The notes below the pieces were generated by a model, which did not search any database, was not told the DNA's origin, and was given only the letters and a program-made list of their open reading frames with translations. A stretch of 64,000 nucleotides of DNA from a virus (taxonomy: Duplodnaviria; Caudoviricetes). Below are positions 2-51,022 of the stretch, piece after piece. A program made the position numbers and the translations under genes. The stretch lies in the IMG/VR virus record IMGVR_UViG_3300007770_000001. One strand, written 5' to 3'. Position 1 is the stretch's first letter. Each line of letters starts with the position of its first letter.

Positions 2-508
2 GGAACCGTCTTCGAGCAAGGCCAGGAACTTGGGCGTGGAGACCTGGATATCTTCACCGAAGACTCCGACGGGAACCCAGTCAATGTCTACGAGATTTCA
101 TACTCGATCTACTACGTGGACTCGGACAACGGGGCTGAAGTTCTCATCGGTCCGGATACCCGAACGCCGGTGAATCCTGAGGTCGGGGAATACTACGCTG
201 CGGTCCGGATTCCCAACTCTGCCGTGGCGGGCTGCTACCGCATCAGGTGGCGGGTCCGAGAGACTGCTTCCTCATCCCAGGAAGGTGCTGTCCAGGAGTT
301 TGGCGTCGTTGCGGATGTCTCAGGAACGGCAGATGTCTACACGACGGCGGTCCGGGACCTGATCAACAAGCTCCGGATCATGACCAGGGACAACTGCCTG
401 GGCGGGGACACCCTGGTGGAAGTGGACGCGGACGGGGAGATCATCCAGGTGAGCCTCGAGGACTTGTACGAGGCGATTGGGGATATGCCCATGCAAGAGG
501 CATCCTGA
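2..508 (+). CDS. N-terminal half of a fractured virion neck/head-tail protein gene: N-extein (5' truncated by window) fused to 37-aa split-intein N fragment
   Basis: Frame open from nt 2; ...KLRIMTRDN then CLGGDTLVEVDADGEIIQVSLEDLYEAIG (intein block A, Cys1 at 395); TGA 506-508. Confidence 0.85.
   Translation, partial: GTVFEQGQELGRGDLDIFTEDSDGNPVNVYEISYSIYYVDSDNGAEVLIGPDTRTPVNPEVGEYYAAVRIPNSAVAGCYRIRWRVRETASSSQEGAVQEFGVVADVSGTADVYTTAVRDLINKLRIMTRDNCLGGDTLVEVDADGEIIQVSLEDLYEAIGDMPMQEAS
395..505 (+). other. Split intein N fragment (IntN, 37 aa, acidic)
   Basis: CLxxDTxV block A; 10 D/E and no K/R in 37 aa; ends at stop codon. Confidence 0.88.
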
Positions 509-1440
509 TGCCAAGACCCGCGACACCCCCCAAAGACCCGCCTCCGGAGATCGTCCCGTACCTGGAGAAGCATGAGATCAGTTGGGAGTTGTTCTCGCGC
601 AGGATGGTCCGTGATCCCGAGGTGAAGAGGATTCGAAGCGAAGTGGTTACCGAACTCCACCAACAGGGGAAAACCTGGGCTCAGATGACAGCTCTCACTT
701 CTTTCGGCGCGGGGCAGCTGAGAGGGTACACCCGTGCGGTAGGTTGTGTGGCCTCCCGAAAAAACCTGAGCGAAGCGGGAGCACGTTCTGGCAGGGCCCG
801 AAAAGGGGAGAAGAAGCCATGGTTTTCCAAGCAGATGAAGGAGAGATGGGAGAAGGGAGAATTCGACTTCCATAGAGGGAGGGTGCGTTCGGAGGAAGAG
901 AGGCAAGCTCTCAGGGATTCTTGGACTCCAGAGAGGAGAGCAGCGTTTTGCCGAACCATGACGGAACGTTGGGCAAACCCGGAATTCCGGCAGAAGTTGG
1001 AAAGATTCCATCAGGACCCAAAGACACGTATGGAGAGATCCGCACGGCAAGCAGCAGCTATCAAGGCGGATCCCCAGAAATGGTCTTGGGGGAAGGGTTC
1101 CCGGGTACGCAGCACCAAATCGGATAGAGCGAGGTTTTGGGTTCGAAGCACCTTTGAGACCGCTGCTGTCCGGCTATTGGAAGGGGATGTCCAGGTTGCC
1201 AGCTACGAGTACGAGCCTGTTTTCAAGGATGAGGCAGGCCTCACAATTTTGCCAGACTTCAAGGTGGTCTTCACAGACGGGTCATGGAAGATTGTCGAGG
1301 TGAAAGCAAGTTGGGTTCTTAGACTCCCCCCAGAACACCCCAAAGCCCAGAAGCTCGCGCGTTACCGCCGGTTAGCAGAGCGGCTGGGGGTGTCTTTCGA
1401 GATTTGGACAGAACAGGACGTGCTCCATGATCACCTCTGA
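508..1440 (+). CDS. Free-standing PD-(D/E)XK (TnsA-N-like) putative homing endonuclease with HTH/NUMOD-like N-terminus, 310 aa
   Basis: STFE...YEYEP...ILPDFKV...IVEVK motif; ATG 508 overlaps upstream TGA (TGATG), preferred over track start 247. Confidence 0.8.
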   Translation: MPRPATPPKDPPPEIVPYLEKHEISWELFSRRMVRDPEVKRIRSEVVTELHQQGKTWAQMTALTSFGAGQLRGYTRAVGCVASRKNLSEAGARSGRARKGEKKPWFSKQMKERWEKGEFDFHRGRVRSEEERQALRDSWTPERRAAFCRTMTERWANPEFRQKLERFHQDPKTRMERSARQAAAIKADPQKWSWGKGSRVRSTKSDRARFWVRSTFETAAVRLLEGDVQVASYEYEPVFKDEAGLTILPDFKVVFTDGSWKIVEVKASWVLRLPPEHPKAQKLARYRRLAERLGVSFEIWTEQDVLHDHL

Positions 1441-1816
1441 GACCAGAAACAGGATTCGCGCCGCTTTCTCAGTGGGTCGGCTGAAGACCCGCACCGTCTC
1501 TCCGGAAGGGAAGGGACGTTGGCAGCGTGTTCTGAAAGCATCCAAGATGGAGATTCCAGATTCTTTGGATTGCCTGGAGGTCTCTACTTCCAGGGGGTCT
1601 ATGATCCTCACGGAAGACCACAGGGTTTTCACGGCACCCACTGAGAAGACAGAGGCGAGGAATCTGGAGAAGGGATCTCCTGTGCTGGGGTCTGGGGGCC
1701 TGCTGATCCTGGTGACTCAGGTCCGGGCTGCCCCTCGCGAGCGCTTCATGTTCGACATCACCGTGGAGGGGGATCACAACTTCATTCCCGTGGGGTCTGG
1801 GGTCGTGGTGTCAAAC
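1427..1816 (+). other. Split intein C fragment (IntC, 130 aa, basic N-terminus)
   Basis: Blocks B, F, G present; first 40 aa contain 11 K/R. Confidence 0.88.
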
Positions 1817-2317
1817 TGCCCCGACAAGCACTACAAGTTCCGTCCTCCTGAAGGAACGGAGACCGTGGGCTGCTACAACCAGGTCTTTGGTTATATCTGG
1901 ACTGACGAGGAGCTTGCCCAGTATCTCGAGATGGCCCTCTGGAAGTGGAACCTCTACCCTCCGGACACTTCTGCCAAGTGGACCACGGTCGACAAGGTGT
2001 ACAAGGGGAAGCAGGGTTGGAGATCAGCTCTCCTGTGGGGAGCTCTGGTCTTGGCCGCCCAGGCTCTCAGCTTCCAGTGGGTCGCGAATGAGTTCGGCTA
2101 CAGCATCGGAGGAATCAGCCTCGATCTGGAGAAGTCCTCCAAGTACCAGGCTCTCCGGGCGGACGCCGAGGCTCAGTGGACTCAGCTCACAGAGGCGAAG
2201 CAGCGTACCGAGAAGTACATGCGGGGCTTGGCCCAGCCCAGGTTCGGCAGGGGGGTGAGGTCGGCCTTTGGTCCACATGTGGGAGCGGGAATTTTGTCTC
2301 CACGGTCATTCATCTAA
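1427..2317 (+). CDS. C-terminal half of fractured neck/head-tail protein gene: 130-aa IntC fused to 166-aa C-extein
   Basis: LTEDHRVF (block B), MFDITVEGDHNF (block F), VVSN/C (block G, Asn 1814-1816, Cys+1 1817); extein CPDKHYKFRPP...FGYSIGGISLDLEK; neck assignment is inference. Confidence 0.85.
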   Translation: MITSETRNRIRAAFSVGRLKTRTVSPEGKGRWQRVLKASKMEIPDSLDCLEVSTSRGSMILTEDHRVFTAPTEKTEARNLEKGSPVLGSGGLLILVTQVRAAPRERFMFDITVEGDHNFIPVGSGVVVSNCPDKHYKFRPPEGTETVGCYNQVFGYIWTDEELAQYLEMALWKWNLYPPDTSAKWTTVDKVYKGKQGWRSALLWGALVLAAQALSFQWVANEFGYSIGGISLDLEKSSKYQALRADAEAQWTQLTEAKQRTEKYMRGLAQPRFGRGVRSAFGPHVGAGILSPRSFI

Positions 2318-2382: not shown

Positions 2383-3900
2383 ATGCCCATCATCTGTCCC
2401 CATTGCTCACGTAGATTCAAGGGCACATCGATCAATTCCAGGCACAAACGTGTCTGTGCCGGATGGCCGAACCCACCCTCTCCGATCCCCTGCCTGTGCG
2501 GCCATGAATCCACTTCATCTACCCAGATGAAGCGCCACCGTCGGACTTGCTTTACATGGCAGTCTCGGGACAAGAAGGCAGTGGCCCAGGCGCGGAAGCG
2601 GGAGACCTCTCTTCGGAGGCACGGGGTCGAGAACGGTTCTCAGGCCCCTTCTGTGCAGGCACGACGTGCTGCGACCAACCTCGAGAGATACGGACACACC
2701 AATCCGGGAGCCTCAGAGCAGGCCAAGGCCAAGATCCGACAGACCAACCTGGAACGCTATGGCGTAGAGCATGTCACCTCATCTCCGGAGGTTCAGGCTC
2801 GGATGCGGGAGACCCTACGGAGGAATCATGGGGTCGGCAACCCGTTTGAGTCCCCGGAGGTCCAGGCCAAGATCCGAGCTACGATGCTCGAGAGGTACGG
2901 AGTTGAGAATCCCCAGCAGTGTCCGGAGATCCGAGCCCGCACGACAGCTACGTGCAAGGCCCGTTACGGAGGCAGGCTTCTTGCTTCTCCGGAGATTGCT
3001 GCGAAGGCTCGAGCCACGAACCTGGAACGCTACGGGGACGAGGTCCCTCAGCGCACTCCCGAACTTCGGGAGAGGACCCGCCAGACCAACATGGAGAGGT
3101 ACGGAGTCCCCTGGACCTGCATGGACCCAGAGGTCCGAGCGAAGCAGCTGGCGACGCACCACAAGAGGTATGGGTCCCACTACTTCGCCTCAGAGGAGGG
3201 CAAGGCCCAGATTCTCGCATCTTTCCGAGAGAGGTATGGGGTCGATCATTGGATGCAGGCTGAGGGGGCGTGGGACAGGCTCGTCGCCGTGTTCCAAGAG
3301 AGATACGGAGTCGACCATCCTCTTCAGCTCGCAGAGTTCCTGGAGAAGCGCGTCCGGACAACCCAGGCCCGCTATGGCGTGGACCACGTGCTTCAGGACG
3401 TGGAAATCATGGCCCGTCTCCAAGCCACGAACATGGAGAGGTATGGCCACCCCTTTGCGATGCAAAACAAGGAGGTGAGCAGTAGGATGGTTGCCACCAA
3501 GATCGAACGGTACGGAAATCCCTGGGGACCCTCTCCGGTAGACGGACCCAACGGTCTGGAACAAGCCGTTCATGCCCTTGCCCCAGAGGGATCCCTCCTA
3601 TTCACAGGGGATTTCACGTTCTGGAGATGGCTGCCAACACTCTCCAAGCACAAGAACCCCGATTTCATCGTTCCGGGACCTGATCCGGACCATCCCAAGC
3701 GGGGAGTCACGAAGGTCGTAGAAGCGTTTGGCGACTACTGGCACAGCCGGATGTTCACGGGAAAGGTGCCGTTCGCCCACGAGCAGGAGCTCATCTCCGC
3801 CTATCAAGAGGTCGGTATCGAGTGCCTGGTCGTCTGGGAGTCCGAGGTCAACTCAGAGCCTGAGGGAGTTCAAGCCCGGCTGGCCAAGTTCCTCTCGTAG
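2383..3900 (+). CDS. Putative homing endonuclease: N-terminal Zn motifs, 14 x ~23-aa (E)RYG repeats, C-terminal Vsr-like nuclease
   Basis: Repeats TNLERYGVEHV etc.; C-terminal KNPDFIV...VVEAFGDYWH...CLVVWESE. Confidence 0.8.
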   Translation: MPIICPHCSRRFKGTSINSRHKRVCAGWPNPPSPIPCLCGHESTSSTQMKRHRRTCFTWQSRDKKAVAQARKRETSLRRHGVENGSQAPSVQARRAATNLERYGHTNPGASEQAKAKIRQTNLERYGVEHVTSSPEVQARMRETLRRNHGVGNPFESPEVQAKIRATMLERYGVENPQQCPEIRARTTATCKARYGGRLLASPEIAAKARATNLERYGDEVPQRTPELRERTRQTNMERYGVPWTCMDPEVRAKQLATHHKRYGSHYFASEEGKAQILASFRERYGVDHWMQAEGAWDRLVAVFQERYGVDHPLQLAEFLEKRVRTTQARYGVDHVLQDVEIMARLQATNMERYGHPFAMQNKEVSSRMVATKIERYGNPWGPSPVDGPNGLEQAVHALAPEGSLLFTGDFTFWRWLPTLSKHKNPDFIVPGPDPDHPKRGVTKVVEAFGDYWHSRMFTGKVPFAHEQELISAYQEVGIECLVVWESEVNSEPEGVQARLAKFLS

Positions 3901-3902
3901 TT

Positions 3903-4124
3903 TCAGGAAACCAGCGCCCAGGTATCTGAGTCGGACGGGTGCTCTACGAACCCCGCACGGATGAAGTACTCGGGGTCGATTTGGGAGGACTCGCCCATCT
4001 TGACGGCGATTCGCCGCCCGTTGTGGGAGTAGCTGGCGATCCAACCTGCTTCCTCCAGGAGCTCAGCGAACAGCGTAGCCAGGCCGGCGGACTCGAAGGT
4101 GTGTGAGAAGACACGGTAGAACAT
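3903..4124 (-). CDS. Hypothetical protein, 73 aa
   Basis: ATG start, packed between neighbours. Confidence 0.6.
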   Translation of the reverse strand: MFYRVFSHTFESAGLATLFAELLEEAGWIASYSHNGRRIAVKMGESSQIDPEYFIRAGFVEHPSDSDTWALVS

Positions 4125-4145
4125 GGTTGTCTCGGGGGCTTGGGC

Positions 4146-4565
4146 TCAGTGTTCGTCGTTGGTGGTCCAGACCACCTTGTGGTCCTGGTTGCGGTCGGTG
4201 ATCTCGGTGCAGTAGCCCTCTTTCGTGTAGGTCCGGCACTTCCGGCAGGCCTTGGCCGCCCGGATGGATGAGAAGCTCTCGCCGCAGGAGCACTCGTAGT
4301 GGCAGAGCGCCATCGTCTCGGCGTAGCGAGCCTCGTCCGCCGCGACCTGCTCGGCCTCGAAGTCGGCGGAGAAGTCCCGGACCGCGCCGGAGCGGAGATC
4401 CTCGGACGCCACCTTGCAGCAGCGCGCGGCGTGGCGGTGCTGCCGATAGCAGTTCGTGCACCCGGCGCACTTGAACGGGTGCGCGTTGGGTCCCGTCAGC
4501 TCGACCGGGAAGCCGTTCACGAGGACGGTACGGGCGGAGGCGGAGCGGGTTTCTGAAGCGGCCAT
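4146..4565 (-). CDS. Cys-rich (Zn-binding) hypothetical protein
   Basis: CxxC motifs; AGGAG RBS and conserved promoter motif upstream. Confidence 0.75.
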   Translation of the reverse strand: MAASETRSASARTVLVNGFPVELTGPNAHPFKCAGCTNCYRQHRHAARCCKVASEDLRSGAVRDFSADFEAEQVAADEARYAETMALCHYECSCGESFSSIRAAKACRKCRTYTKEGYCTEITDRNQDHKVVWTTNDEH

Positions 4566-4585
4566 GTTGTTCTCCTGTCGCCTTC

Positions 4586-4613
4586 GTTACGTCCAGCCCC
4601 GCAGGAGGGAAAC
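4586..4613 (-). promoter_or_regulatory. Class I promoter-like motif GTTTCC-N13-GGACGTAAC
   Basis: One of 8 equally spaced copies, upstream of RBS of 4146..4565. Confidence 0.75.
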
Positions 4614-4669
4614 CCTCCCTACTCCCAATCGCGAACCCATAGTTGGGCGCACCTCCCCGCTCCACGTGA

Positions 4670-4846
4670 TCAGGCCCCGTGCTTGCTGGGTTGGCTGTCC
4701 CATTCCTCTCCCTGGTGTCCGTAGGTGTAGAAGTGGTTGCAGCGGCCGTTCCGACACTGGTACGTAGGTCGCCCGTCAGCAGCCTCTCCTGTCCGCTCGA
4801 CGGTTTTCTTCCCACACGCGGAGCATTGACCCCGTTCTACTTTCAC
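4670..4846 (-). CDS. Small Zn-ribbon protein, 58 aa (below track cutoff)
   Basis: AGGAGG RBS, GTG start; MKVERGQCSACGKK...YQCRNGRCNHFYTY. Confidence 0.7.
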   Translation of the reverse strand: MKVERGQCSACGKKTVERTGEAADGRPTYQCRNGRCNHFYTYGHQGEEWDSQPSKHGA

Positions 4847-4864
4847 GACGCCCCTCCTATCGGA

Positions 4865-5176
4865 TCATTGACGGAGCGCTTCTCGATCCAGAGCCTCTTG
4901 CAGGAGGTTCTCCAGTTCCTTGACGCGCGCTTCGAGCTCTCGCTGTTTCATCGCGTGGGTGGAGTTGATGAGCTCTCCGGACTCCCACTTTGCCAGCTGG
5001 CCGTTCTGGAACTGTTGGCGGCGGAGCCCTGTGAGGATGCTACCTACTTGGCCAGCCAAGCTGATGGCGTGTCTGAGAGCAGCGGCTTCAACTGGAGCCG
5101 CCACCTCCTCTGCGTGGGCCAGCATATCCTGATGCAGGCCCGAAGCCGCTTGGACCAACCTGTCGTACCTGCTCAT
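4865..5176 (-). CDS. Hypothetical coiled-coil protein, 103 aa
   Basis: GGAGG RBS before ATG 5176. Confidence 0.7.
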   Translation of the reverse strand: MSRYDRLVQAASGLHQDMLAHAEEVAAPVEAAALRHAISLAGQVGSILTGLRRQQFQNGQLAKWESGELINSTHAMKQRELEARVKELENLLQEALDREALRQ

Positions 5177-5202
5177 AGCACCTCCATGGAGGGTTACCGG
5201 GA

Positions 5203-5496
5203 TCACTCGTCGTAGAGGAAGCTGTCCTCCTCGGCAAGTCTGTCCTCGAAGTCCCATGCCTGGGAACGAGCCCTGTTGTAGCAGACCAAGCAGAACCGGA
5301 AGGTGAGGTATCTCCACCGACCATCGTAGAAGTAGCGGGCGCGGGCGTCCCAGTACCTCTTGCCGCAGTCCCCACCACAGTCTCGGCAGGTGTGCTTCTT
5401 CAGGGAGTTCCGCACCGTTCCTGTGAGAGATACGACCCCACCCTCAGCGTTGAACTCAAGCTGGTTTGAGCCCGGCGTTCTCTGCAGACGTCCCAT
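5203..5496 (-). CDS. Hypothetical CxxC protein, 97 aa
   Basis: GGAGG RBS; class I motif upstream. Confidence 0.7.
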   Translation of the reverse strand: MGRLQRTPGSNQLEFNAEGGVVSLTGTVRNSLKKHTCRDCGGDCGKRYWDARARYFYDGRWRYLTFRFCLVCYNRARSQAWDFEDRLAEEDSFLYDE

Positions 5497-5516
5497 GATG
5501 ACACCTCCATGGAAGA

Positions 5517-5570
5517 GTTACGTAGACATCCAGAATGAGGAAGTTTCCATAAGGGGGCACCAGACGTAAC
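5517..5570. promoter_or_regulatory. Back-to-back divergent class I promoter motifs with overlapping -35 boxes
   Basis: Minus: ACTTCC-N13-CTACGTAAC (5517-5544); plus: GTTTCC-N13-AGACGTAAC (5543-5570). Confidence 0.72.
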
Positions 5571-5590
5571 TGCTTCGCAAAGGAGCCTCT

Positions 5591-6091
5591 ATGGATCCCG
5601 ACCCCTCCGTCTTCCTCTGGTGTCTCAACTACCGCAACAACGGCATGTGGACTCTCCTCTCCGACTACCGGGACGCGAGCGAAGCTGCTGCCCTGGCGGT
5701 CGCTGTGTACATCGCCTACCGGGGCATCATCCGTGACACCCATTGCTCCGACGACACCATCGTCATCGAGACTCCATCCATCATGGGAGCAGTGGATGTC
5801 CTCTACCTGAAGGGACACCCTTCCCTGATCCGTGAGGTCCGACGGGTCCTCTCCACTTTCCGGAGCGGGTCGGTCCGCGAGGTCTTCGAAGAGATCATGG
5901 AGATCCCGTATCCGGAGAGCCTCCGAGGCGACCCCTACCGGGCGGTCTGGGCGGTCGGAGACCTCCTCAGGAACCCGGAGTTCACCCCGGAGGAGTGCGT
6001 CGATACCCTTCCTCCGTATCGGAACAACAAGATGGGTCCGTTCTCCGAACACCAGCCCCCGCCGTGCTACGGAGGACAGCTCCCTACTTGA
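5591..6091 (+). CDS. Hypothetical protein, 166 aa
   Basis: AGGAG RBS, promoter motif, typical codon bias. Confidence 0.75.
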   Translation: MDPDPSVFLWCLNYRNNGMWTLLSDYRDASEAAALAVAVYIAYRGIIRDTHCSDDTIVIETPSIMGAVDVLYLKGHPSLIREVRRVLSTFRSGSVREVFEEIMEIPYPESLRGDPYRAVWAVGDLLRNPEFTPEECVDTLPPYRNNKMGPFSEHQPPPCYGGQLPT

Positions 6092-46969: not shown

Positions 46970-47475
46970 TGACTGCCGTAGCTGCCATCGAAGACGCGAT
47001 CCGGCGCAGTTGGAATGAGCGCTTCGTCAGGGGAACCCCTGCGGAGTCCTTGGCCGAACGCCATCTGAACGAGGTCCTCCAGGACTTCATCCTCACCGAA
47101 CCGGTCCTCTCACGCCTCCAGCCTTTCCCGGTCCGGATCCGGGTCCGGATCGTACGGGGTGGGGACATCATGTGGGGGTTCGTCGCCCAGGGAGACCCCA
47201 AGGGGCTGTCCTTGTTCCAGCTGAACCACCCGGAGGACTTCGAGTCCAACTTCCCTGCGAACAAATGGATTTCGCGGTACTCACCCACCCGCGCGTCAGA
47301 GCAGGAACTGGTCTCCATCATCGCACAGATTCTCTCCTATTCCTCCCTTCGGGAGGAATATGGCCAGGATACCTTGGGGGTCCTGATGGCCCTCGGTGCC
47401 CACCGACAGGTGGAGAACCCGGACGAGAAGATCGCGACCCTCGCCAACCGTATCGACAAGGTGCCCCTCAGATGA
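46966..47475 (+). CDS. Hypothetical protein
   Basis: Coupled within replication operon. Confidence 0.7.
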   Translation: MMTAVAAIEDAIRRSWNERFVRGTPAESLAERHLNEVLQDFILTEPVLSRLQPFPVRIRVRIVRGGDIMWGFVAQGDPKGLSLFQLNHPEDFESNFPANKWISRYSPTRASEQELVSIIAQILSYSSLREEYGQDTLGVLMALGAHRQVENPDEKIATLANRIDKVPLR

Positions 47476-48062
47476 ACAGAGCAGGACGTGCCGCCGAGAA
47501 CATCCGAGAGCACGTCCCTATCTCCCGTCTGTTGGCCGACTACGGCTACATGGTGGATCCCCGAGGGGATGACCGGGAGCAGCAGTTCTCCTGCGATCTA
47601 CATGGGGACGGACAGGACAGCAAGCCCTCCGCTCGCCTGTACCCGGGGAGCGGTCAGTTCTACTGCTTCGCCTGCGGGATATCTCGGGACCACGTTGCCC
47701 TGGTCCGCGAGAAGGAGGGTGTCTCCTTCTGGGAAGCCGTCAAGATACTGGAGCGTCGCTACGACGTCCCTGCGCTTCCCTGGGAGCCTGACGAGCAGGA
47801 GCGTCCCCCTACCCCCGAGGAGGAGGTTGCGACGCTCCTACAGTCTTCTGAGACGGCCGAGGATGCCCTCCGGAGAACCGAGCGCCTCCTTCGCACTACC
47901 ACCCGAGAACGAGAGCTCCCTGTGAAGACTTGCATGGGTCTGTGGGGAGTCTATGACCGGGTAGTGGCCGCCCATCAAGAGGGTGTGGAAGAAGCCCAGA
48001 TCGTTCAAATGGCACACAGCATACTGGAGAAGACCAAGAAGTCTCTCCGTGGAGAAGCATGA
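47472..48062 (+). CDS. Stand-alone CHC2 primase zinc-binding domain protein
   Basis: SCDLHGDGQDSKPSA...FYCFACG...EKEGVSFWEAVKIL; no TOPRIM. Confidence 0.82.
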   Translation: MNRAGRAAENIREHVPISRLLADYGYMVDPRGDDREQQFSCDLHGDGQDSKPSARLYPGSGQFYCFACGISRDHVALVREKEGVSFWEAVKILERRYDVPALPWEPDEQERPPTPEEEVATLLQSSETAEDALRRTERLLRTTTRERELPVKTCMGLWGVYDRVVAAHQEGVEEAQIVQMAHSILEKTKKSLRGEA

Positions 48063-51022
48063 TCCAGTCCAGTCTCTTCGACCAAATGGCAGATCTCGCG
48101 AAGCCCCGGCTCACCAAGAAGCCCTGGATGGAGACGGTAGAGCTCATCTTGGGGGTGCCTGATCTCATCCCCCAGGTGATTCAGGAGTGTATCGAATCCG
48201 GCATCTACGGGCTGGATTTGGAGACCTCCGGCCTGGACCAACGTGCGTTTCCCAACGATACGGGGGAGCTCGAGACGGTCGACAAGATCGTCGGCGTATG
48301 CATCGCTCCGACGACCTCCAAGGGCTACTACTTCCCGGTTCGACACAAGGACCAGGGAGCGGAAGCCAACGTGCCGGTCCGTCTCATCAAGGAGATGATC
48401 GAGAAGATCCAGGAGGGGAAGGCGGTCGCGGTGTTCCACAACGCCAAGTTCGACCAGAAGTTCCTCAAGTACGATCCCTGTGGGGCCATTGGGGAGTGGG
48501 ACGAGCCGGATACCTGGCACGACACCTGGATCCTTGCCTACCTCCGCAACTCTCGCCAGCGCCAGAAGGGTCTGAAGTTCCTGGCGGGGTCCGAACTCGA
48601 CCGAGAGATGTTCGAGCTCCATGAGCTCTTCCTCAAGGAGCGGGGGAAGAAAATCGACAAGGACTTCTCCAAGTTGGACCCCCTGTGGGAACCGGTCCTC
48701 TGGTACGCGGCTCCTGACGCCATCAACACCCTGGCCCTGTTCGAGATCCTCTATCCGGCGATCTCGGAGGAGGACCAGTTCGGCAACGCCCAGAACGTCA
48801 TCTACACGATCGAGAAGATCTGCTCTACGGCCACAATGTGGATGGAGCAGTGCCGGATCTTCATCGACCGGAAGAAGCTCGAAGAGCTCATCCGCCTGGG
48901 GCAGCAGGAGTGGTGGGAGTGCGTCAACAAGGTCTACGATGAGGTTTCTGCCGCTCTTGGGCGGGACGCCCGCCCCGCTTGGCTGGGAGAGATGGGGCGC
49001 ATCTTCAACAAGGATGTGATCTCCCCCAACTACGGGGAGGTCCGAGCGATGGCTCTGACCCGTGTAGCAGAGCCGGCCAGGCCTTCCATCACCAAGTCCG
49101 TCCCTGGTCTGGTGAACAAGAAGCAGCGGGAAACGGTTCACTTCCCCCACACCTACGACATCACGATCCCCGCCTCTCTGGGGCTCCTGCTCCGTGAGAT
49201 GAACGTCCCTGGCCTGGTCCCCACGGAGAAGTCCGGACAGGTCAAGACGTCGAAGGACGTGCTGGACAAGGTCATTGAGGACCAGGGCGAGACGCTGCCT
49301 TGGATGAAGTCGGTTCGCCGCTTCCGGCAGATCACCAAGTCCCTGGGCACCACCCTGCTCAACATCTACAAGGACTCCTCCCCGGAGCGGGCCCCTGACG
49401 GGTGTGTCTGGGCCAACTTCAATGGTCTGAAGACGGATACGGGTCGGTTCTCCACCCCCACGCCACGGGACAAGAAGAACTTCCACGGCCAGGTCAACTG
49501 GAACGTCCAATCAACGACGGCCACCTACGACAAGAGCCTGCCTGCCTGTTCCTACCGACAACGCGAGGTGGTGGCGGCCAAGCCCAGCTACATCTTCTTC
49601 GCGATCGACTACTCGGGCGTAGAGCTCCGGATCGTCACCAACCTCTCCGGCGAGCCCAAGTGGGTGGCGGAGTTCTTCCGGTGCGCTCCGTGTGGTCTGG
49701 AGTTCGATCGGGGAACAGAACCTCCACCGTTCTGCCCCGAATGTGGGTCCAACAAGATCGGGGACCTACACACGCTCACCGCTATCGGGATCTACGGGTC
49801 AAGCGATAAGCTCAAGAGACAGACCGGCAAGATCGTCAACTTCCTCCTCTGCTATGGGGGCTCAGGAATCGCTGTCCAGAGGTCCACTGGGTGCAACGAG
49901 GAGGAGGGCTGGCGCATCAAGAACCAGTTCGACAAGACCTACCGGGGCCTGCAGGCTTGGTGGCGCGCCCAGGAGCGTCTGGCGAAGAAGCAGAAGTACG
50001 TCACCACGGCGTTCGGCCGGAAGTATCCGGTTCCCGACATCGACCACGAGTACAACAAGTTCCGGTCCAAGGCCAAGCGGAACGCGGTCAACGGGCCTGT
50101 ACAGGGAACCTCCGCTGACATCATGAAGCTGGCGATGGGCCTCCTGTATCGGGAGTTCAAGCGCCGGGGATGGATCAACCGGGGGCCGGACCTTGAGGAC
50201 CTGGTTCGGATGGTCCTCACCATTCACGACGAACTCGGGTTCGAGATCCATGAGTCCATCGTAGACGAGGCCATCCAGGTCATCTGCGATATCATGTGTC
50301 GCAAGACGGTCGGCCAGCTGGGGTGGTTGATTCCCCTCAAGGTCGACGTTGAGTTTGGCGCCAACTGGACCGTCCCCAACAACCTCACCGAGATGTCCTA
50401 CAACAAGGGTGGTGGTGACTGGACCCCCTATCTGGCCAAGGTCTTCCCGACCTACTATGCCAACTACCTGGAGCACGGGGGGACCCCCGTAGCGGAGAAG
50501 GAGGAGCCGCCCCCCTCGGACGACAACGGAGGAGGTGCTCCCAGTGAGGGCCCTCCGGGTCCCGATCACCCCGATGCCTGCACCACCTGCAGCGGGCATG
50601 GCTACACTCCGTTCGAGGACTCCTGTTCCAAGTGCGAGGGTTCGGGTTTCCGCGCAGACGGTAACTCCAACCCTCCGGATGGATCATCGGGAGGCAGTTC
50701 AGAGATTCCCTCCCCGGTTCCCCCGCCTTCTTCCACTGTTGGACAGGATGGCTTGGGTTCTGTGGCTTCTCCGCGAGGCCACTCTCGGGAACCGGGGAAG
50801 GTTTCTCGGGTCGGAGATGGGCGAGAGTTCGTCTACAAGATCCAATCTCATCTGCTGACTCCCGACAACGCCGAGAAGTTGGCCCGTGTGGTCCAACGGT
50901 GTCAGGGTCGAGGCACGGATTCTGTTCGGATCCAGAGCACTGGGGGTACTGATCTCTTGGGCCATCCCGTCCGCGTCGCTCTGGATGAGTTCAAGATCAT
51001 TGCCCAGTACGAGGGTCTGTAA
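48059..51022 (+). CDS. polA: Family A DNA polymerase with 3'-5' exonuclease
   Basis: LDLETSG, HNAKFD, YAAPDA; KTDTGRFS, IDYSGVELR, KIVNFLLCYG, VQGTSADI, IHDEL. Confidence 0.93.
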   Translation: MIQSSLFDQMADLAKPRLTKKPWMETVELILGVPDLIPQVIQECIESGIYGLDLETSGLDQRAFPNDTGELETVDKIVGVCIAPTTSKGYYFPVRHKDQGAEANVPVRLIKEMIEKIQEGKAVAVFHNAKFDQKFLKYDPCGAIGEWDEPDTWHDTWILAYLRNSRQRQKGLKFLAGSELDREMFELHELFLKERGKKIDKDFSKLDPLWEPVLWYAAPDAINTLALFEILYPAISEEDQFGNAQNVIYTIEKICSTATMWMEQCRIFIDRKKLEELIRLGQQEWWECVNKVYDEVSAALGRDARPAWLGEMGRIFNKDVISPNYGEVRAMALTRVAEPARPSITKSVPGLVNKKQRETVHFPHTYDITIPASLGLLLREMNVPGLVPTEKSGQVKTSKDVLDKVIEDQGETLPWMKSVRRFRQITKSLGTTLLNIYKDSSPERAPDGCVWANFNGLKTDTGRFSTPTPRDKKNFHGQVNWNVQSTTATYDKSLPACSYRQREVVAAKPSYIFFAIDYSGVELRIVTNLSGEPKWVAEFFRCAPCGLEFDRGTEPPPFCPECGSNKIGDLHTLTAIGIYGSSDKLKRQTGKIVNFLLCYGGSGIAVQRSTGCNEEEGWRIKNQFDKTYRGLQAWWRAQERLAKKQKYVTTAFGRKYPVPDIDHEYNKFRSKAKRNAVNGPVQGTSADIMKLAMGLLYREFKRRGWINRGPDLEDLVRMVLTIHDELGFEIHESIVDEAIQVICDIMCRKTVGQLGWLIPLKVDVEFGANWTVPNNLTEMSYNKGGGDWTPYLAKVFPTYYANYLEHGGTPVAEKEEPPPSDDNGGGAPSEGPPGPDHPDACTTCSGHGYTPFEDSCSKCEGSGFRADGNSNPPDGSSGGSSEIPSPVPPPSSTVGQDGLGSVASPRGHSREPGKVSRVGDGREFVYKIQSHLLTPDNAEKLARVVQRCQGRGTDSVRIQSTGGTDLLGHPVRVALDEFKIIAQYEGL

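Follow-up and report, generated by a model that had tools for sequence, protein, structure and literature searches.

How might a virus obtain a single protein from a gene that is broken in two? The question is raised by the start of IMG/VR record IMGVR_UViG_3300007770_000001 (Duplodnaviria; Caudoviricetes), of which one strand of 64,000 nucleotides (nt) was analyzed and is here called the window. At positions 2 to 2317, an open reading frame (ORF) that ends in the N-terminal part of an intein (IntN) and another that begins with the C-terminal part (IntC) are separated by the gene of a free-standing endonuclease. We think it highly likely that this is the fractured gene of a head-to-tail adaptor (neck) protein of a marine jumbo myovirus-like phage, and that a class-1 split intein joins the two products into one protein by trans-splicing. 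The anatomy of the locus, the homology of its parts, the conservation of the catalytic residues, the continuity of the adaptor in intein-less and cis alleles, the recurrence of the cassette and the predicted binding of IntN to IntC back this reading.

Layout of the fractured gene

The segments of the locus, with lengths in amino acids (aa), are as follows.

2 to 394, plus strand: N-extein, the N-terminal 131 aa of an adaptor-like protein, with an Ig/macroglobulin-like beta-sandwich and the first helix (from alignment to contiguous homologues, a structural model and its fold)
395 to 505, plus strand: IntN, 37 aa (CLGGDTLVEV..LEDLYEAI..QEAS), block A with Cys1, beta1-beta2-alpha1
506 to 510, plus strand: TGATG overlap of the ORF1 stop codon and the endonuclease start codon, inside a small GGCAUC-CU-GAUGCC hairpin
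508 to 1440, plus strand: ORF2, free-standing endonuclease, 310 aa, with a helical N-terminal region and a C-terminal TnsA-like PD-(D/E)XK domain
1427 to 1816, plus strand: IntC, 130 aa, with a basic N-terminal segment, block B (TEDH), block F (DITVEGDHNF) and block G (VVVSN)
1817 to 2317, plus strand: C-extein, 166 aa and stop codon, starting with Cys+1 (CPDKHYKFRPP..), a helical, probable head-to-tail adaptor domain and a C-terminal tail

The start of ORF1 (2..508) lies outside the window, about two codons upstream as judged by alignment, and its C-terminal end reads ..KLRIMTRDN↓CLGGDTLVEVDADGEIIQVSLEDLYEAIGDMPMQEAS (arrows mark extein-intein borders, insertion points or breaks). ORF3 (1427..2317) encodes 296 aa and shares its first 14 nt (1427-1440) with the end of ORF2. 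The preliminary description of the locus, made from the sequence alone, had proposed three ORFs with these coordinates, an endonuclease gene overlapping both of its neighbors, and an acidic IntN facing a basic start of ORF3. An ORF and translation check returned the same anatomy and both overlaps, and residue counts gave 10 acidic and 0 basic residues among the 37 aa of IntN (395-505), and 11 basic and 4 acidic residues among the first 45 aa of ORF3. The latter contains TEDH (block B), FDITVEGDHNF (block F) and VVVSN↓C (block G), with Ser129 as the penultimate intein residue. The existing database gene call for ORF3 (P0003) begins at Met59, so that half of IntC is hidden. Start miscalls of this type were also seen in L009 and other loci; the annotation of such split-intein halves is systematically wrong.

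No RNA fold at the ORF borders and no element in a promoter and terminator scan exceeded shuffled sequences. The hairpin around the ORF1 stop and ORF2 start (498-511) has a z of -0.5 relative to shuffles, and could damp translation of the endonuclease. RNA splicing as the means of joining the halves was rejected, as Rfam shows no group I or group II intron.

The gene between the halves had been described as a PD-(D/E)XK endonuclease, an assignment that the fold and the conserved residues now uphold. ORF2 matches Pfam PF08722 with an E of 0.005, under the gathering score. Its AlphaFold model (predicted local distance difference test, pLDDT, 86) consists of a helical N-terminal region and a C-terminal domain, and the latter matches Tn7 TnsA (1t0f_A) in Foldseek with an E of 9.7e-6 and a probability of 1.00. 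Residues E217, D250, E264 and K266 (RS(S/T)(F/Y)E ... PDF ... EVK) are invariant among 28 homologues, all of them unnamed proteins of ~300 aa. By sequence and model, ORF2 is predicted to be a TnsA-type nuclease whose active site is intact. The weak PHROG match of ORF2 to a 'head closure' family is probably spurious. All four homologues whose context was looked up or recognized lie at this locus (P0123, which is the window, P0145, P0150, and the PF08722-bearing gene beside P0016).

The intein halves and the protein that they interrupt

The preliminary description had read the ends of ORF1 and ORF3 as parts of a HINT domain, and three lines of comparison bear it out. Pfam Intein_splicing (PF14890) matches ORF3 residues 96-130 with an E of 3e-4, under the gathering score. 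A profile built from 23 IntC homologues matches many solved inteins (2jmz, E 2e-14; 4e2u, E 3.5e-10), among them the CDC21, DnaX, DnaE and gp41-1 inteins. Finally, a contiguous 156-aa mini-intein found at the same insertion site in a relative (P0038, 450 aa, locus L006) aligns from one end to the other with 5bkh, the solved mini-intein of Pyrococcus PolII (E 1.7e-5). Through this alignment the break in the window falls in the loop after helix alpha1 (..LEELYDLIDKEN↓DSIIKESF..), and in alignments to contiguous inteins it sits after LEDLYEAI. This is the S2 site, so that the atypical, TerL-type split point that had been proposed is the one found.

The residues required of a class-1 intein are present in the sequence: Cys1, block B T-x-x-H, block F D/H, a terminal Asn and Cys+1. 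T62, H65, H117 and N130 of IntC are invariant in 23 of 23 diverged homologues, at least 90% of them have D110, and a Cys or Ser occupies the +1 position in all 23. The first 58 residues of ORF3, those dropped by the gene caller, are conserved across the IntC homologues. All nine homologous IntN pieces recovered start with Cys1, are 29-37 aa long and are acidic. The preliminary description had singled out a penultimate Ser in place of His; the Ser is there, but it is no oddity, being the norm of the family (mostly Ser among the 23 homologues, with His in three and Gly in two).

Association of the two halves was assessed by complex prediction with ORF1 residues 127-168 and ORF3 residues 1-136, in three runs. 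The interaction prediction score from aligned errors (ipSAE) was 0.81 in all three, and that of the best control was 0.00; 51 of 78 solved complexes attain this mark, as do 2 of 108 mismatched pairs. At least 90% of contacts are common to the runs, and the pLDDT of the partner is 82. In the predicted interface IntN residues 130-168 contact IntC residues 1-22, 32-43, 105-123 and 128-129, with most contacts supplied by the first 58 IntC residues that are missing from the gene call. Because split inteins are well represented among solved structures, this result is taken as likeness to solved split inteins rather than proof of binding. IntN and IntC are thus predicted, at the level of a model, to associate into one HINT domain.

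We propose the following course of events. The TnsA-like endonuclease gene would have come to sit within the intein coding sequence, in the loop after alpha1 (S2 position), cutting the intein into an acidic IntN of 37 aa and an IntC of 130 aa with a basic N-terminus. The overlapping ORFs would presumably be co-transcribed and translationally coupled, and after translation IntN would dock on IntC to complete the HINT fold. Cys1, the T-x-x-H of block B, the D and H of block F, Asn130 and Cys+1 would then perform trans-splicing, yielding an adaptor of ~299 aa that reads ..MTRDN-CPDKHY.. across the junction, and the excised intein pieces.

Which protein would be restored in this way? Contiguous homologues spanning RDN/CPD, which the preliminary description had named as a check, do exist. 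When the C-extein was compared with phage genomes by tblastn, four records were recovered: LR745208 (an uncultured 485-kb phage), which has the same three-ORF layout as the window; Tunturiibacter jumbo phage Tunturi_5, in which gp319 is contiguous and annotated as a head-tail connector; and two records of Bacillus phage G, with a contiguous gp165. The joined exteins of the window align without a gap across the junction to Tunturi_5 gp319, to phage G gp165 and to dozens of contiguous metagenomic proteins of 297 aa. A search of 5.8 billion proteins with ORF3 returned 600 matches, and the best 119 non-self matches were sorted into classes: ~65 are full-length intein-less proteins (~297 aa, ..TRDN(N/D)PDRNY..), ~45 consist of IntC and C-extein in a window-like layout, six carry IntC, C-extein and a second contiguous intein further downstream, and one (P0038) has the contiguous mini-intein at the site of the window. 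The intein-less P0031 reads TRDNCPDKNY, practically the junction predicted for the spliced product, and the nearest intein-less homologue is 68% identical to the joined extein. The insertion motif, ..LR.(M/L)(T/L)RD(N/Q)↓(C/S)PD(K/R).Y.F.PP.., places the intein between the first helix and PD(R/K)NY.F.PP, among the most conserved stretches of the adaptor family.

The fold of the extein was taken from a model of the intein-less homologue P0047 (pLDDT 73). Residues 1-105 form an N-terminal beta-sandwich of macroglobulin/Ig-like type (Z ~9), and the helical domain (115-280) aligns by VIA-align to ~12 adaptor or neck chains solved by cryo-electron microscopy, with Z of 7.2-8.7. These include the Pa223 tail (9nwi_A; Z 8.7, 110 aa aligned, root mean square deviation 3.8 Å), the P1 connector (9ums_E; Z 8.4, 121 aa, 4.8 Å), the P-SCSP1u portal-tail (8i4m_G; Z 8.3, 115 aa, 5.6 Å), the T4 gp13/gp14 neck (9lu4_D; Z 8.2, 114 aa, 6.2 Å) and the PhiM1 portal-adaptor (8vb4_M; Z 7.4, 118 aa, 4.6 Å). 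A Foldseek search of the extein model against the PDB gave matches to the Ig-like N-terminal domain only, none at E <1e-3, and PHROGs gave no match for ORF1 or ORF3. Since the fold matches are consistent and Tunturi_5 gp319 carries a connector annotation, an adaptor is the best reading of the modelled host protein, and its location in the virion is putative. The neck or head-tail identity suggested beforehand is thus borne out at the level of the predicted fold, by moderate matches.

The gene upstream of the adaptor in relatives (L004:2157-2450; also L008, L009, L046, L048 and L055) encodes a domain 30-35% identical to the adaptor beta-sandwich, which looks by sequence like a paralogous Ig-like module.

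Recurrence of the cassette, alternative readings and probable mobility

The order N-half, TnsA-like endonuclease and C-half recurs in more than 12 diverged metagenomic phage loci from other samples, among them L001, L004, L005, L008, L009, L047, L051, L055, L061 and the P0016 locus; their endonucleases share only 36-50% identity with that of the window. Four runs, which belong to two marine studies, each yielded contigs in which positions 1-2400 of the window are unbroken, with 0-1 substitutions and free of indels; the four runs may include the source sample.

Several points weigh against a spliced virion protein. We infer, rather than observe, protein splicing and the incorporation of the product into the virion or dependence of the virion on it, and we infer likewise the activity and the target site of the ORF2 nuclease. 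In the run search, no RNA run contained the stretch. The window lacks the penultimate His, a common but not obligatory feature of class-1 inteins, and has Ser129 instead; some inteins splice without this His. The complex score may partly reflect memory, on the part of the model, of solved split inteins. The match to adaptor folds is moderate, and helical domains can reach a Z of ~8 through a common arrangement. Finally, the C-extein of the window lies on a long branch of the C-extein tree (0.5, against a median of 0.08).

Two observations would fit intein halves that are splicing-dead and serve only as a non-covalent dimerisation module, with the adaptor working as two chains: the penultimate His is absent, and the complex prediction shows binding only, not chemistry. 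There is also a precedent in the fragmented NrdA of phage Aeh1, which is reportedly assembled through interaction domains of mobile-element origin (PMC3045599). Selection for binding alone, however, would not be expected to leave Cys1, T-x-x-H, the His of block F and the C-terminal Asn without variation, to preserve the Asp of block F in at least 90% of homologues and to retain a Cys or Ser at +1 throughout. Moreover, the cis alleles have these residues too, and only by splicing can they yield a working adaptor. We regard this alternative as improbable.

It is even less probable that the fractured adaptor gene is a decaying pseudogene, neck function being provided by another gene. The long branch of the C-extein would fit such decay, as would the substitutions E146T, K245R and N247D at invariant columns and the state of the endonuclease in some relatives (a frameshift that leaves two ORFs in L060, an internal deletion in L056). 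The three ORFs of the window are nevertheless intact, 48 of the 51 columns invariant in intein-less homologues are retained in its joined extein, the layout is conserved across loci despite the divergence of their endonucleases, and the 64-kb window showed no second copy of the adaptor, IntC or endonuclease. An assembly or gene-calling artefact, by which a contiguous endonuclease-containing intein would only appear to be split, has the wrong start call of ORF3 in its favor but is practically dismissed by stops and frame changes at both borders, by the same indel-free sequence in four per-run assemblies and by the three-ORF structure of the diverged loci; the preliminary description had named such an assembly error as one refutation of its reading.

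We return to the proposed trans-spliced adaptor and to the probable movement of its cassette. On a tree of 118 C-exteins the presence or absence of the intein requires at least 11 changes, far fewer than with shuffled labels, and well-supported (starred) branches alone force ~4 changes; one row (P0121) was scored as intein-less though split, which affects the count only slightly. Closely related alleles differ in state. The split L061 and the intein-less L062 are ~90% identical at the DNA level, with 12 mismatches in the 60 nt directly 3′ of the insertion point and 2-3 per 30 nt elsewhere. This elevation next to the insertion is suggestive of a co-conversion tract. Likewise, the contiguous L006 (4391-4858) and the split L058 (863-1260), L059 and L060 share >90% DNA identity from ..IKESFKEG.. 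onward, and the similarity vanishes exactly at the split point. In L058-L060 the TAA stop codon of the nuclease overlaps the IntC start codon.

These allele patterns fit a homing cycle and the gene-breaking model of 2009 (Dassa et al., see below), with gain of the nuclease or its precise loss both possible as the direction of change. The patchy presence and absence among near-identical exteins points, indirectly, to a homing role of ORF2. The endonuclease would probably spread the cassette when phages co-infect a cell, by cutting alleles that lack the intein or the endonuclease. Across nine loci the identities of endonuclease, IntC and extein correlate weakly (rho 0.3-0.4, from non-independent pairs).

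A further gene, of 505 aa (2383 to 3900, plus strand), lies outside the intein cassette. It belongs to DUF7487 and has homing-endonuclease-like PHROG annotation (PHROG 3339/12131, homing endonuclease). Its product combines a zinc-finger-like motif at the N-terminus, repeated modules and the motif ..EAFGDYWH.. at the C-terminus, and gave no match against PDB sequences. A DUF7487 gene lies 3′ of the adaptor in both intein-less (L021, L031, L042, L043) and split loci (L001, L004, L005, L047), and is thus read as an independent mobile element.

Relatives of the window also carry a second intein site in the adaptor gene (site b; ..NW(I/V)..EF↓S...AHN↓(S/T)YSIGG), occupied by an intein that has Ser1 and, at +1, a Ser or Thr. 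Contiguous Ser1/Ser+1 mini-inteins were seen there in L005 (4664-5143), L049 (4679-5173) and L056 (5920-6435), and in L005 and L056 they accompany the split intein at the site of the window (site a), so that two inteins lie in one small structural gene. Site b is itself split after alpha1 in L033 (4001-6389; ..NWIANEF↓S..AHN↓TYSIGG), with Ser1/Thr+1 and an IntN of ~32 aa; its halves are separated by an ORF (4771-5766) for a DUF559/Vsr-like endonuclease that gave no match against PDB sequences. A split version without an endonuclease is found in L052 (3623-5061), with the halves in permuted order: IntC and the C-terminal piece (3623-4249) lie upstream of the N-terminal piece and IntN (4291-5061). 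As read from their sequences, the L033 and L052 versions (Ser1, Thr/Ser+1) would be natural cysteine-independent atypically split inteins, of which PolB16 alone is known according to a 2026 paper (PMC13014065).

The loop after alpha1, rather than the canonical site, may be a recurrent landing site for free-standing endonucleases in this intein lineage. Two paralogous inteins of the adaptor gene, broken at this loop by unrelated nucleases (TnsA-like at site a, DUF559/Vsr-like at site b in L033), and the 3′ border of a very recent nuclease insertion or loss that is preserved in L006 vs. L058-L060 speak for this proposal, which we consider evenly balanced between right and wrong.

Related systems and implications

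The closest known arrangement was reported by Dassa, London, Stoddard, Schueler-Furman and Pietrokovski (2009), who described 27 fractured-gene loci; the hosts are enzymes of DNA metabolism and a terminase, and the nucleases are of the GIY-YIG or Vsr-like families (PMC2677866). As in those loci, two host ORFs on the same strand carry the intein halves, a free-standing endonuclease gene lies between them, the origin is a phage and the host protein has contiguous homologues. One of them, a terminase intein 'fractured at an unusual point', has a 122-aa C-part with every motif except N1 (PMC2677866), and shares with the window the unusual break point and the long C-part; presumably the two also work by one mechanism. 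The arrangement, including this split point and the free-standing endonuclease, was thus already described in 2009 for the terminase locus, and that of the window is not a categorically new system. In contrast to the 2009 loci, whose hosts are DNA-metabolism or packaging enzymes, the host here is a non-enzymatic, probable virion protein (the adaptor), and the endonuclease is a TnsA-like PD-(D/E)XK enzyme instead of a GIY-YIG or Vsr-like one. The ORFs also overlap here, whereas theirs are separated by a spacer of 27-51 nt, these features being descriptive and not strict criteria. What is new is the probable virion-protein host and the TnsA-like nuclease family.

The inteins AceL-TerL and GOS-TerL (Thiel 2014; Bachmann and Mootz 2015), which stem from the lineage of the 2009 terminase locus, have IntN of 25 and 37 aa and are split at the S2 site, as summarised in PMC13014065 and PMC11766414. 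With VidaL and PolB16, they make up the few natural atypically split inteins cited in the first of these. The intein of the window resembles them in its short IntN (37 aa; 29-37 aa in the family) that ends after alpha1, in its large IntC with blocks B, F and G, and in its occurrence in phage metagenomes. It differs in its extein, an adaptor and not TerL, in the length of IntC (130 vs. 104 aa) and in its Cys1/Cys+1 junction with a penultimate Ser. Kinship with the TerL inteins was judged from PDB matches, and no TerL intein was among these at E up to 1.

ORF2 shares with Tn7 TnsA (PDB 1t0f, 1f1z) the C-terminal restriction-enzyme-like fold and the conserved E, D and E-x-K. Unlike TnsA, it has neither a TnsB or TnsC partner nor a transposon context, it has a long helical N-terminal region, and it sits inside the intein coding sequence, a position in which it would behave like a homing endonuclease. 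The helical domain of the host protein (115-280) aligns with those of phage adaptors (T4 gp13/gp14, the P1 connector, Pa223, T7-like gp11-type) at a Z of ~8; unlike them, it is preceded by an extra N-terminal Ig/macroglobulin-like domain. The match is moderate and the virion location putative. We found no literature report of an intein in a head-to-tail adaptor, in a survey whose coverage excludes subscription journals.

The remaining genes of the window include those for DNA polymerase A, helicases, RIIA, a baseplate wedge protein and a tail spike, and the same proteins are found on contigs of up to 339 kb; the source is a marine jumbo phage. At 47172-51022 (plus strand) the gene of a DnaG-type zinc-ribbon protein precedes that of an ordinary family A DNA polymerase. 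A second fractured gene at the polymerase (48059-51022) was considered and rejected, as both the exonuclease and the polymerase domains are present.

These data bear on inteins and on phages in several ways: (i) automatic gene callers truncate IntC, so that such genes are being missed; (ii) only a handful of natural atypically split inteins, with IntN of 15-37 aa, are known, and the present family is large and diverged (IntN of 29-37 aa, Cys1 and Cys/Ser+1), with matched contiguous alleles and candidate cysteine-independent relatives, and is useful raw material for semisynthesis and labelling tools; and (iii) the pairs of cis and split alleles, and of alleles with and without the intein, make the 2009 model, in which an endonuclease invades an intein, directly testable. 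The reading proposed here would carry fractured genes and split inteins beyond enzymes of DNA metabolism and packaging to a structural protein of the virion and, if true, the assembly of an infectious jumbo phage would depend on protein trans-splicing.

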